Assembly: GCA_000002435.2 (NCBI GenBank)
Contig: CM018791.1
Length of the DNA stretch: 64,000 nt
From: Giardia intestinalis
Taxonomy: Eukaryota
Reading direction: 5' to 3' (one strand)
Below the pieces are notes generated by a model. It ran no database searches and had not been told where the DNA came from. It saw only the letters and a list, made by a program, of their open reading frames with translations. The position numbers and the translations under genes were made by a program. Below, one piece after another: positions 59,189-64,000 of this stretch (position 1 is the stretch's first letter; every line of letters begins with the position of its first letter).

Positions 59189-61351
59189 ATGTTCCAACTG
59201 ATACCCCTGTTCGTAGCGAGCGCGCTCATGGCGGCCTGCCAGCAAGACGGGAACCACCTGACCACCTGCGCACACGAAAAGTGCGAGACGGTCGGTAGCA
59301 CAGAGATCTGCACCCAGTGCAAGGCCGGAGGCGTCCCGGTCGACGGTTTCTGCCGGCCCTTCGGCTCCCCCCAGGCCGCGGCAGCCGGGTGCACCAAAGC
59401 AGACGGGGCTGCCCTCGACAAGACGGCAACCACCTGCGAGAAGTGCGGCGACGGGTACTTCCTCTTCATGGGCGGGTGCTACAAGACAACCGACGGGCCC
59501 GGCAGCGAGATATGCACAGCAGCCAGTAATGGAGTATGCACTACTTGTAAGGCAGATAACGGCCTGTTCAAGAACCCAGTTACACCTCAGAAGCCTGGTA
59601 GCGAGTGCATCTTGTGCTCCGATACTATAGATAGAAACGGGGTCATGGGAGTCGCTGGATGCTCAGAATGCTCCCACACGGGCACTAGCGGACCGGCCAC
59701 GTGTACAGAGTGTCAAGCAGGGTTCGTTACGAAGGACAGTGCATGTGTGAAGTGCGGAGACGGCTGCTCTGCTTGCTCAGCTGATACTCCGACTCAGTGT
59801 ACCGCCTGCGTTGAGGGGAAGTTCCTGAAGGATGGTAACACTTGTGTAGAGGCTACTGAATGTGGTGCTGATAAGTACGCAGACAAGAAGACCTGGACCT
59901 GCAAGGCATGTGATCCCGACATAGCTGGGTGCACCGCATGTGAATATAATGATGCCACGGGGAAGCCAAGGTGCACCAACTGCGGGACCAATAAGACCCC
60001 CAGGACGACCCTTGATGGGACCTCGACCTGTGTGACAAAAGACTACGCTGGATGTAAAGGCGCTGACGGGGCCCTATTTATGAAGGAGGACAAAACATGT
60101 GTTTTATGCAGTACCGTTTCAGCTGGAGCCGATCCAAATGACCAGGGCATTGCCGGGTGTAAGAAGTGTACCAAGGACTCGGCGACACCGCCAACCTGCT
60201 CGGAGTGCCTCGACGGATATTACAATAGCGCAACTGGTGGTAGTGGTACGGCTACATGTGAAGCTTGTGGTGATAATTGTGCCACCTGTGCTAAGGATAC
60301 AAAAGACCAATGCATGACCTGTAAGCCCGGGTTCTTCATGAAAGGTAGTGGTCCTGGCACATGCGTCCCCTGTGATGACCAAACAGATGGAGTGCCTGGC
60401 TGTGCAACGTGCACCTTCTCTAGCTCGTTGACCTGCAACTCCTGTAAGCCCAACTACAAGCAGAGTGGTACCGGTCCTTTTACATGCACCAAGACTTGTG
60501 AAGACCCCACTGCCTGCGGGGGCACTTCTGGTGCCTGCGATGCCATGATAATTGATGATCAGGGCACCACAAAGCACTACTGTTCCTACTGTGGAGAGAC
60601 CAATAAGATACCAATTGATGGGAAGTGTGTTGATAGTGGTAGTATAAATGGTAATACTTGTGCTAAAGGTGTATGTACACAGTGTGCTCAAGGATACTTC
60701 TTATACATGGGAGGCTGTTATAAGGTAGCAAGTCCACCCGGTAACCTCATGTGCACTGAAGCAACAACAGCTGGTGTCTGTGATACACCCAATGCCAATA
60801 ATAAGTACTTCGTAGTCCCAGAAGCAAAGCCTACTCAACAGTCTGTGTTGGCTTGTGGTAACCCCCTGGGCACACTAGTAGGCACTGATAGTACCGCTAA
60901 GGCATATGTGGGGGTGGATGGCTGCTCCCAGTGTACAGCCCCAACAGCTCCATCTGAGGGTGGCATGACTGCCGCCACGTGCACAGCGTGTACCAACAAC
61001 AACAAGCCCAACCTGGCTGGGAGCGGGTGCTTCCCATGTACCGTTAGTGGATGCTCGCACTGCAACAGGGATGACATGTGCGAGGCATGCAGTAGTGGTA
61101 AGAAGGTGAGCCCTGGAAGGAAGTCATGCGTGGATAGCTGCCCCAGCAACTCCACTGATGATAACTCTGTCTGTGTGTGCAACGATGGATATAGCCCTGA
61201 CAGCAGTGGGACCTCCTGTGTGTCCTCTGGCGCCAACAGGAGCGGCCTCAGCACAGGGGCCATCGCGGGGATCGCCGTCGCCGTGGTCGTCGTTGTGGGG
61301 GGCCTCGTGGGCTTCCTCTGCTGGTGGTTCATATGTAGAGGGAAGGCGTGA
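59189..61351 (+). CDS. Variant-specific surface protein (VSP), complete, 720 aa from the ATG at 59189 (signal peptide MFQLIPLFVASALMAAC). The track ORF starts at a GTG at 59000.
   Basis: CxxC-rich with GGCY motifs, a transmembrane segment and the tail GGLVGFLCWWFICRGKA. The stop TGA is part of TGACTTAGGTAGTGAAT. Confidence 0.9.
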   Translation: MFQLIPLFVASALMAACQQDGNHLTTCAHEKCETVGSTEICTQCKAGGVPVDGFCRPFGSPQAAAAGCTKADGAALDKTATTCEKCGDGYFLFMGGCYKTTDGPGSEICTAASNGVCTTCKADNGLFKNPVTPQKPGSECILCSDTIDRNGVMGVAGCSECSHTGTSGPATCTECQAGFVTKDSACVKCGDGCSACSADTPTQCTACVEGKFLKDGNTCVEATECGADKYADKKTWTCKACDPDIAGCTACEYNDATGKPRCTNCGTNKTPRTTLDGTSTCVTKDYAGCKGADGALFMKEDKTCVLCSTVSAGADPNDQGIAGCKKCTKDSATPPTCSECLDGYYNSATGGSGTATCEACGDNCATCAKDTKDQCMTCKPGFFMKGSGPGTCVPCDDQTDGVPGCATCTFSSSLTCNSCKPNYKQSGTGPFTCTKTCEDPTACGGTSGACDAMIIDDQGTTKHYCSYCGETNKIPIDGKCVDSGSINGNTCAKGVCTQCAQGYFLYMGGCYKVASPPGNLMCTEATTAGVCDTPNANNKYFVVPEAKPTQQSVLACGNPLGTLVGTDSTAKAYVGVDGCSQCTAPTAPSEGGMTAATCTACTNNNKPNLAGSGCFPCTVSGCSHCNRDDMCEACSSGKKVSPGRKSCVDSCPSNSTDDNSVCVCNDGYSPDSSGTSCVSSGANRSGLSTGAIAGIAVAVVVVVGGLVGFLCWWFICRGKA

Positions 61352-61365
61352 CTTAGGTAGTGAAT
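61352..61365 (+). terminator. VSP 3' conserved element and poly(A) signal CTTAGGTAGTGAAT.
   Basis: Immediately follows the TGA of the VSP. AGTGAAT fits the AGTRAAY consensus. Confidence 0.6.
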
Positions 61366-61374
61366 GCTGTACAG

Positions 61375-61430
61375 TGATAGTGATAGTGATAGTGCTATGT
61401 GGTGTGTGGGGTGATAGTGGTGGTGTGGGA
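61375..61430 (+). repeat. GTGATAG-type short repeat tract, (GTGATA)3 then degenerate GTGRTRG units, forming the junction between the complete VSP and the first truncated VSP copy.
   Basis: cagtgatagtgatagtgatagtgctatgtggtgtgtggggtgatagtggtggtgtggg seen directly. Confidence 0.8.
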
Positions 61431-63308: not shown

Positions 63309-63322
63309 CTTAGGTAGTGAAT
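63309..63322 (+). terminator. VSP 3' conserved element and poly(A) signal CTTAGGTAGTGAAT (second instance).
   Basis: Identical to 61352..61365. Confidence 0.6.
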
Positions 63323-63329
63323 GCTGTAC

Positions 63330-63390
63330 AATGTGTGATAGAAGGTGATAGTGGGTGATAATGGGTGATAGAGGGTGATAGTGGAGTGTG
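63330..63390 (+). repeat. Second GTGATAG-type junction repeat tract (tgtgatagaaggtgatagtgggtgataatgggtgatagagggtgatagtggagtgtgata).
   Basis: Five or more GGTGATAR units seen directly. Same position relative to the VSP stop as the first tract. Confidence 0.8.
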
Positions 63391-64000
63391 ATATGCACAA
63401 AGGCTGAGGGAGGAGTGTGCACTGCTTGTAAGGCAGATAACGGCCTGTTCAAGAACCCAGTTACACCTCAGAAGCCTGGTGGGGAGTGCATACTGTGCTC
63501 TGATATCAAGGGAGCAGATGGATATACGGGGGTGGCTAACTGCGCACAGTGTACCAAGTCAGACAGTAGTCCAGGAGCAGCCACGTGTAGTACCTGCAGA
63601 GATGGATACTACATGGACTCTCAGGCATGTGTCAAATGTAATGACGCTTGTCTGACCTGCGATGGAAGTGGTCCGAATCAGTGTACATCGTGCCCAGAGG
63701 GGAAGTACCTGAAGACTGACAAGTCATGCGTGAATAATAATGGATGCACTGGAAACACTTATGCTGACCCTGTGACAATGACCTGCAAGGATTCTGCAAT
63801 AACTGATTGCACCACGTGTGAGTACAATGCGACCGTCAGTAAGCCCCAGTGCACCGCCTGTAATAACAATAAGAAGGTGAAGACGGCCATCGACGGCACC
63901 ACGACATGTGTTACTGTTACATCCGATTGCGTAGACGAGAATCACTTCAAGGCAGATGATGACTCAGCTTGTTATCTATGTAGTGATACAACAGGAACAG
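63391..64000 (+). pseudogene. Third VSP copy, 5'-truncated at almost the same internal point and running off the window end (partial).
   Basis: In-frame translation ICTKAEGGVCTACKADNGLFKNPVTPQKPGGECILCSD...CTGNTYADPVTMTCKDSAITDCTTCEYN... is homologous to both upstream VSPs. No ATG or signal peptide. Confidence 0.7.

Follow-up and report, generated by a model that had tools for sequence, protein, structure and literature searches.

Why would a surface-protein gene be followed by copies of itself from which the beginning is missing? The question is raised by a locus of Giardia intestinalis WB at the end of a 64,000-nt stretch of chromosome 3 (NC_051858.1; 1,973,847 bp), referred to below as the window, whose positions are used for all numbering; its G+C content is 51% and it contains no Ns. 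At positions 59,189 to 64,000 a preliminary description, made from the sequence alone, had recognized one complete variant-specific surface protein (VSP) gene followed head-to-tail by two 5'-truncated copies, and had proposed that these resulted from tandem amplification and serve as silent donor cassettes for the expressed VSP. The analysis presented here leaves little doubt that a vsp linear array begins here with its proximal end, that in it a complete head gene is followed by VSP pseudogenes (psiVSPs), and that this array has a history of gene conversion.

The head gene and its truncated copies

The coding units of the array, as far as they lie in the window, are the following.

59189..61351, + strand: complete VSP GL50803_00114674, 720 aa, the head of the array
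59187..59193, + strand: VSP initiator (Inr), a Kozak-like TAATGTT across the head gene's start codon (motif scan)
59189..59458, + strand: head module of the first gene, with the signal peptide MFQLIPLFVASALMAAC... and about 90 N-terminal residues (protein alignment, tblastn, hydropathy)
61431..63308, + strand: second copy, the 5'-truncated VSP pseudogene (pVSP) GL50803_0050319 (tblastn, Pfam, Table S7)
63382..64000, + strand: third copy, the 5'-truncated pVSP GL50803_0050320, which runs off the window (frame analysis, tblastn, Table S7)

The first gene is a complete VSP, as the preliminary description had it. An exact-sequence look-up identified its product with XP_001703945.1 / KAE8303325.1 of WB clone C6. 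The protein carries the Pfam VSP domain (PF03302; E=1.5e-40, 139.8 bits, cut-off 31.4), contains 84 Cys (11.7%) and 28 CXXC motifs, and terminates in a transmembrane (TM) domain followed by the CRGKA tail (...GLVGFLCWWFICRGKA at 61334-61351; protein end ...FLCWWFICRGKA). Tails of the form ...CRGKA occur three times in the window; two of them are on the + strand, where the stops end at 61351 and 63308, one is on the - strand, and each is followed by CTTAGGTAGTRAA. The N-terminus, MFQLIPLFVASALMAAC, is hydrophobic, with a best 10-aa Kyte-Doolittle mean of 2.41 that is near the value of the other VSP in the window (2.8), and judged from hydropathy it qualifies as a signal peptide. The start codon lies within the Inr motif PyAATGTT, as defined by Adam et al. 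(2010; PMC2996952), and this copy, at 59187, is the only one on the + strand past position 44000.

The tail, the cysteine, CXXC and Pfam signature, the N-terminus, the Inr and the poly(A) signal (consensus ACTTAGRTAGTRAAY) are thus all present in 59189..61351. According to Rodriguez-Walker et al. (bioRxiv 10.1101/2022.03.07.483299), 135 of the 136 complete VSPs have the Inr, and GL50803_00114674, formerly mis-annotated as an 'uncharacterized protein', is really one of these 136, 'all of them with SP'. In the table of Adam et al. the gene matches vsp190 by statistics only (720 aa, 84 Cys, 28 CXXC, TAATGTT, clade I); vsp190 is listed there on an unplaced contig and with no array flag, and no entry '114674' was found in the supplementary table of that paper.

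The head module is restricted to the first gene of the array. It is carried by neither downstream unit (the tblastn matches start at aa 91 and aa 106, in agreement with the protein alignment), and the same module begins other complete clade-I VSPs of the old assembly (P0016, P0022, P0024, P0027).

The second copy enters the coding sequence at 61431 with CTCCTCTTCATGGGCGGGTGCTAC, which corresponds to residue 91 of the head VSP at the FLFMGGCY box. In a tblastn search against the window, aa 91-720 of the head VSP match 61431-63305 with 64% identity (E=0), and the Pfam VSP domain is again detected (E=1.1e-34). All 625 codons are free of stops, and the CXXC/Cys pattern, the TM domain and CRGKA are intact. 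Table S7 of the same preprint enters GL50803_0050319 as an open reading frame (ORF) of 622 aa at 61440..63308 with TM domain and CRGKA and with no signal peptide. This exact protein was not found in the protein collection, although the head VSP is in it.

The third copy takes up the coding sequence at 63382-63385 (residue 106-108, EICT), and aa 106-308 of the head VSP are matched at 63385-63984 with 51% identity (E=2e-48, tblastn). Stops are found in its frame just upstream of 63382, the first in-frame ATG is at 63613, and the frame remains open over all 206 visible codons. The first 22 nt and the translation agree with the Table S7 entry for GL50803_0050320, a sequence of 1833 nt that has no start codon, is open in frame 1 over its full length and has its 3' end beyond the window.

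Both copies follow the preceding unit in the same orientation after a short spacer, neither has an Inr, an authentic start codon or a signal peptide, and both are annotated as pVSPs. The second copy retains CRGKA and the poly(A) signal within the window, and the third does so according to the published table.

The preliminary description had left open how many further units follow. In the tables of Rodriguez-Walker et al., 0050319 and 0050320 are placed on NC_051858.1 on the strand of 00114674, and six more pVSPs (0050321 to 0050326) are listed for the same chromosome and strand. An array-type poly(A) signal, ...AGTGAATGCT(G/A), is given there for 0050319-0050322, 0050324 and 0050325, and the other variant, TACTTAGGTAGTAAACGCAT, for 0050326. 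Judging from these published tables, the array probably consists of one VSP and eight psiVSPs and ends at 0050326.

Two recurrent junction classes

The units are separated by two junctions with the following elements.

61350..61369, + strand: extended VSP poly(A) signal GACTTAGGTAGTGAATGCTG, the array-type variant, overlapping the stop of the head VSP (sequence; Table S6)
61352..61430, + strand: class-A junction (J1), poly(A) signal and GTGATA hexamers, up to LLFMGGCY (TRF, composition)
63307..63326, + strand: extended poly(A) signal of the second copy, GACTTAGGTAGTGAATGCTG, identical to that of the head VSP (sequence; Table S6)
63309..63381, + strand: class-B junction (J2), poly(A) signal and GGTGATAGAG-type decamers, up to (E)ICT (TRF)

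The poly(A) element CTTAGGTAGTGAAT stands directly after both + strand stops, at 61352 and 63309, and Table S6 of bioRxiv 10.1101/2022.03.07.483299 enters poly(A) signals for GL50803_00114674 and GL50803_0050319. It is followed in J1 by (AGTGAT)x3.7 at 61373-61394 and in J2 by (GTGATAGAGG)x4.7 at 63335-63381, both as detected by TRF. J1 is poor in C (4 C in 79 nt). A tract without any C extends over 66 nt at 63330-63395, overlapping J2 and entering the third copy by 14 nt; it is the longest such run in the 64-kb window, with ~6e-4 expected by composition. From the stop to the resumed homology the spacers measure 79 nt (J1) and about 73-76 nt (J2); spacers of such arrays are given by Adam et al. 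(PMC2996952) a mean of 60 bp and a range from overlapping to 241 bp. The succession of stop, poly(A) element, GTGATAG-type repeat and mid-gene re-entry that had been described from the letters therefore occurs twice, and the two breakpoints, said to lie within ~75 bp of each other, re-enter the gene 15 codons apart, far beyond chance. The junctions also carry several runs of GG to GGGG, for which a structural or recombinogenic role would be conjecture.

Neither junction is peculiar to this locus. Class A is found at the chromosome 4 pVSPs 0050264 and 0050266, and its translation is the N-terminus of three old-assembly models (P0003, P0008, P0012), MLYSDSDS(DS)AMWCGGDSGGVGLLFMGGCY. Compared with the chromosome 4 junctions, J1 has one more hexamer and a 1-nt indel. 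Class B occurs twice each on the European Nucleotide Archive (ENA) contigs L002 and L006, and six further pVSPs (0050268, 0050269, 0050273, 0050322, 0050323 and 0050326) have it as their annotated start. Positions 1-3643 of L006, a human gut metagenome scaffold (ENA ERZ28595607), and 1-2407 of L002 are Giardia array fragments from metagenome assemblies, with class B at every unit boundary. One unit of L006 is a mini-unit of 93 aa flanked by two junctions, and units can therefore shrink severely inside while keeping both boundaries.

Class-A cassettes go on with ...CAGTGAGATATGCACA..., and class-B junctions finish with ...GGTGATATGCACA or ...GAGTGTGATATGCACA. Class B looks like class A less ~55 nt, as if joined to the repeat at a GTGA/ATA microhomology. 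What the two breakpoints show is not local scatter but two classes of junction that recur genome-wide and in other isolates. The proposal of tandem units with a boundary inside the reading frame is thus borne out by the structure and by the reference annotation as pVSPs, with the amendment that not all of the units arose here.

Both classes are visible in published sequences and are not discussed in the passages on arrays of Adam et al. (2010), Xu et al. (2020) and Rodriguez-Walker et al. Outside assemblage-A-like sequences they were not found at the two loci checked, one of P15 and one of GS. The P15 locus has a single VSP model starting with MGGCY and no array; the GS locus has a head-to-tail VSP pair with another spacer and without the GTGATAG junction. 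A scan of JGI metagenome contigs with the junction motif AGGTAGTGAATGCTRTACARTG gave 0 matches.

Sequence exchange and the role of the cassettes

Two tracts are shared exactly by the head gene and the second copy.

60959..61269 = 62916..63226, + strand: tract of 311 nt, 100% identical between the head VSP and the second copy, read as a product of gene conversion or homogenisation (exact matches; sliding identity 1.0)
61295-61373 = 63252-63330, + strand: exact match of 79 nt between the head VSP and the second copy, covering TM domain, tail and poly(A) signal (exact matches)

Over most of the ectodomain the head gene and the second copy have a sliding nucleotide identity of 45-60%. The 117 nt with family-wide conservation are situated downstream of the 311-nt tract. 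Over this tract other members of the family reach at most 90% protein identity, with a median of 45%, and the identity is therefore not a matter of general family conservation. Exact peptide blocks are also shared with genes elsewhere, namely 137 aa between the head VSP and VSP S7 (P0055), 140 aa between the second copy and XP_001707661 (P0004), and 113 aa between the third copy and XP_001705783 (P0054). The genes around these blocks are otherwise divergent, and the partners are VSPs and old-assembly members of linear arrays. The 311-nt tract and the exact blocks of 113-140 aa, situated in otherwise divergent genes, are taken to reflect segmental gene conversion, both in the locus and with VSPs elsewhere. 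The same conclusion on exchange has been drawn at the family level, in the recombination passages of Adam et al. (PMC2996952) and Xu et al. (2020).

Two 5' boxes are likewise shared exactly with the head gene, over 25 nt at FMGGCY and over 44-56 nt at GVCTxC...GLFKNPVTPQKPG. The layout of a cassette is thus one of conserved 5' boxes and a conserved 3' flank (the 311-nt and 79-nt exact tracts) around a variable core that is 45-60% identical.

We understand the locus as an expression-competent head VSP, with Inr, signal peptide and a conserved head module of ~90 residues, followed head-to-tail by psiVSPs. Each psiVSP begins at the FMGGCY box or 15 codons on at EICT and is intact through TM domain, CRGKA, stop and poly(A) signal, with ~60 nt of C-poor GTGATAG-type repeats as the joints between units. 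The array most likely grew by tandem duplication of units bounded at conserved internal boxes. Since then segmental gene conversion has most likely rearranged it, both with the array's own head gene and with VSPs in other parts of the genome. Flanking homology for exchange of the variable core among cassettes, head gene and other arrays would come from the conserved 5' boxes and 3' end. The cassettes cannot yield a surface VSP themselves, since they have no Inr, authentic start codon or signal peptide, and their most likely role would be that of a sequence reservoir that diversifies expressible VSPs over evolutionary time, not that of a machinery for clonal switching. The published donor-cassette hypothesis (Adam et al. 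2010; Xu et al. 2020 on G. muris) fits the sequence exchange seen here, and we infer from the mosaicism that donation to an expressed VSP may take place. A use of the cassettes for switching during infection is regarded as unsupported, because switching is epigenetic according to published work.

The alternative with the strongest claim is that the copies are non-functional debris of unequal crossing-over or replication slippage in the course of decay, with the shared tracts as leftovers of recent duplication. A proposal of this kind, 'remains of discarded vsp genes', is found in Adam et al. (PMC2996952). It would account for the lack of promoter and Inr, signal peptide and authentic start, and it agrees with the annotation of the copies as pseudogenes in the reference. 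Drastically shortened units are known elsewhere, such as the 93-aa unit of L006 and vsp14 with 74 aa (table of Adam et al.), and J1 bears a 1-nt indel relative to the class-A junctions of chromosome 4. However, the second copy has kept 625 open codons along with CXXC motifs, TM domain and CRGKA despite an amino acid divergence of ~36% from the head VSP, and the third copy is not alone in being open over its full length, as several further pVSPs in Table S7 (bioRxiv 10.1101/2022.03.07.483299) are as well. The long exact blocks common to other VSPs, set within divergent genes, also point to continuing exchange and not to passive decay. Debris as the full explanation is for these reasons considered rather unlikely, and we lean slightly towards a reservoir that would be selectively maintained rather than tolerated debris.

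Expression of the copies is a second alternative. They might give rise to read-through or junction-initiated RNAs that feed RNA-based VSP silencing, be translated by internal initiation at 61440 or 61158, or be spliced to a head exon. Transcripts of pVSPs have been detected in G. intestinalis and change during encystation, and the copies are not devoid of start codons. The preliminary description had denied them an ATG, a signal peptide and an upstream region; Inr and signal peptide are indeed missing, but the second copy has in-frame ATGs at 61440 (the M of FMGGCY and the annotated ORF start), 61185 and 61158, the latter two situated within the 3' end of the head VSP in another frame. Upstream of the junction the frame of the second copy continues without a stop over 273 nt, and 61158-63308 forms an ATG-initiated ORF of 716 aa that runs across the junction. 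This ORF, which resembles an 'overlapping linear array', lacks an Inr and has an N-terminus that is only weakly hydrophobic; the protein collection does not contain its exact product. Elsewhere, in the arrays of P0003, P0008 and P0012 and likewise in pVSPs 0050264 and 0050266, the cassette that follows shares its frame with the ATG within the poly(A) signal (GTGAATGC).

None of the in-frame ATGs of the two copies (61158, 61185, 61440, 63613, 63778) carries an Inr, however, and a hydropathy scan found no VSP-like hydrophobic N-terminus at any of them. The best 10-aa Kyte-Doolittle means at the ATGs of the second copy are 1.2-1.8, far under the 2.4 and 2.8 of the two genuine VSPs, and an in-frame ATG with a signal peptide, which would have spoken against the preliminary description, was thus sought without success. 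A full VSP poly(A) signal precedes each unit. At J1 the corresponding ATG (61364) is out of frame with the second copy because of the 1-nt indel, and its reading stops after 16 codons (MLYSDSDSDSAMWCVG*, 61364-61414). In Giardia muris essentially all psiVSP genes are non-transcribed (Xu et al. 2020, Microb Genom 6:mgen000402). Expression in any of these forms is accordingly judged quite improbable.

Two routes to a joint product were considered separately. Read-through or frameshifting from the head VSP into the second copy was set aside, as the two are in different frames and have a full poly(A) signal between them. Alternative splicing of the head exon onto cassettes was also discarded: the Giardia intron 3' motif (CTRAC..ACAG) has no occurrence in 59189-64000, and the lone GTATGT (60671) is away from the boundary of the head module.

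That the junctions are collapsed or chimeric joins of VSP reads, which the preliminary description had named as a possible flaw and which is conceivable insofar as the Sanger assembly of 2007 was interrupted by VSP arrays and its repeat copy numbers were deemed unreliable, can be dismissed with near certainty: the units are well diverged (64% and 51% amino acid identity), so that collapse is no issue, the longest exact repeat in the array region is only 311 nt, the reference is a PacBio chromosome-scale assembly, and both junction types recur in independent assemblies, namely in old WB models, in chromosome 4 pVSPs and in L002 and L006 from other samples.

Several points weigh against a psiVSP array that diversifies expressed VSPs by conversion. 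The identical tract gives no direction, and conversion from cassette to head, conversion from head to cassette or recent duplication could all have produced it. Conversion of an expressed VSP by a cassette would, in Giardia, be a conclusion from sequence comparison, and VSP switching is described as epigenetic in the abstract of PMC2996952. Some pVSPs of G. intestinalis are transcribed, notably in cysts, and 'silent' is therefore not absolute; the earlier claim that the copies are not expressible stands in so far as Inr, authentic start and signal peptide are missing. Finally, the contiguity of the six further pVSPs is inferred from consecutive gene numbers, from chromosome and strand, and from the non-array poly(A) variant of the last one.

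A more far-reaching role is conceivable, in which the junction repeats and the FMGGCY and EICT...GLFKNP boxes would act in cis as recombination boundaries, much like the 70-bp repeats that stand upstream of trypanosome VSGs, and head genes such as GL50803_00114674 would be actively rewritten from their own cassettes during infection or encystation. We consider this a long shot. If true, mosaic VSPs would be made somatically, on top of epigenetic switching, when double-strand breaks rise.

Known systems, surroundings and significance

In their account of 'vsp linear arrays', Adam et al. (2010, BMC Genomics 11:424, PMC2996952) state that such arrays hold more than half of all vsp genes and that the Inr and upstream region are found on first array members only, and put forward the cassette hypothesis; the arrays were re-annotated as psiVSP arrays in the data set of Xu et al. 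(2020, Sci Data 7:38). The present locus matches these arrays completely in its units, in its spacers of ~60-80 nt and in the confinement of the Inr to the first gene. Here as in the published arrays, the downstream members have neither a proper start nor a signal peptide, CRGKA is preserved in them along with the extended poly(A) signal, and there are signs of recombination. There is no difference in kind, and 00114674, 0050319 and 0050320 are already in published tables.

For the psiVSP arrays of G. muris an exchange with intact VSPs through recombination or gene conversion has been inferred (Xu et al. 2020, Microb Genom 6:mgen000402), and the same paper reports no telomere-adjacent tendency for the arrays of G. 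intestinalis. Those of G. muris resemble this array in being tandem VSP pseudogenes without signal peptide. Almost all of them, however, are telomere-adjacent, with a CRGK-type tail and essentially no transcription, whereas the array described here has an intact VSP at its head, and the ~59 kb that come before it in the window are occupied by ordinary genes, among them those for tubulin, kinases and ankyrin proteins.

Silent-cassette antigenic variation is represented by vlsE/vls of Borrelia, pilE/pilS of Neisseria and the VSG arrays of Trypanosoma brucei with their 70-bp repeats. In these systems recombination into an expression site has been shown experimentally to be the switching mechanism. 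The Giardia locus shares with them promoterless 5'-truncated cassettes in arrays beside an expression-competent gene or away from it, conserved flanks around a variable core, mosaicism and a short repeat at the upstream boundary. It differs in that Giardia has ~136 complete VSPs, each with its own start element, in that its switching has been attributed to epigenetic or post-transcriptional control, and in that conversion from cassette to gene, experimentally established in the other three, is deduced here from sequence. We therefore note a resemblance to this class without assigning the locus to it.

Elsewhere in the window, two inverted repeats flank a further VSP. One pair measures 2086 nt (44241-46326 / 54682-56767) and an adjacent pair 770 nt (43419-44188 / 56876-57645), and both are perfectly complementary. 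The arms, 43419-46326 and 54682-57645, enclose a unique segment of 8.4 kb (46327-54681) that contains a kinase-plus-ankyrin gene of NEK type (47034-49232, - strand) and a complete VSP, also on the - strand. The table of Adam et al. (PMC2996952) lists two chromosome 3 VSPs of 714 aa with identical statistics, vsp115 and vsp116 (= GL50803_101765), and the window has one; as a speculation, the segment may be invertible and have been assembled both ways in the old assembly. The longest ORF of this VSP (50649-52793) starts at ATG 52793 and comprises 714 aa. A VSP initiator, CAATGTT, is located at 52750, and the true start is therefore likely to be ATG 52748 (MLLLAPCLLISALAA..., 699 aa), which gives a strongly hydrophobic N-terminus. 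The alpha-tubulin gene (30795-32159, - strand; Pfam Tubulin, Tubulin_C) is overlapped on the opposite strand by an ORF of 496 aa (30723-32213), most likely a spurious antisense ORF.

The type of array, these genes and the donor-cassette hypothesis have all been published, and the locus is real and ordinary for its genome. What is added here, the junction classes, the in-frame ATGs of the second copy and the exchange tracts, is small. The locus nevertheless offers a tidy test case, with a unique expression-competent head gene beside what appear to be eight cassettes and a conversion tract to the first of them. If cassettes feed expressed VSPs within an infection, they would add a recombinational layer to antigenic variation, and this would bear on the design of VSP-based vaccines.

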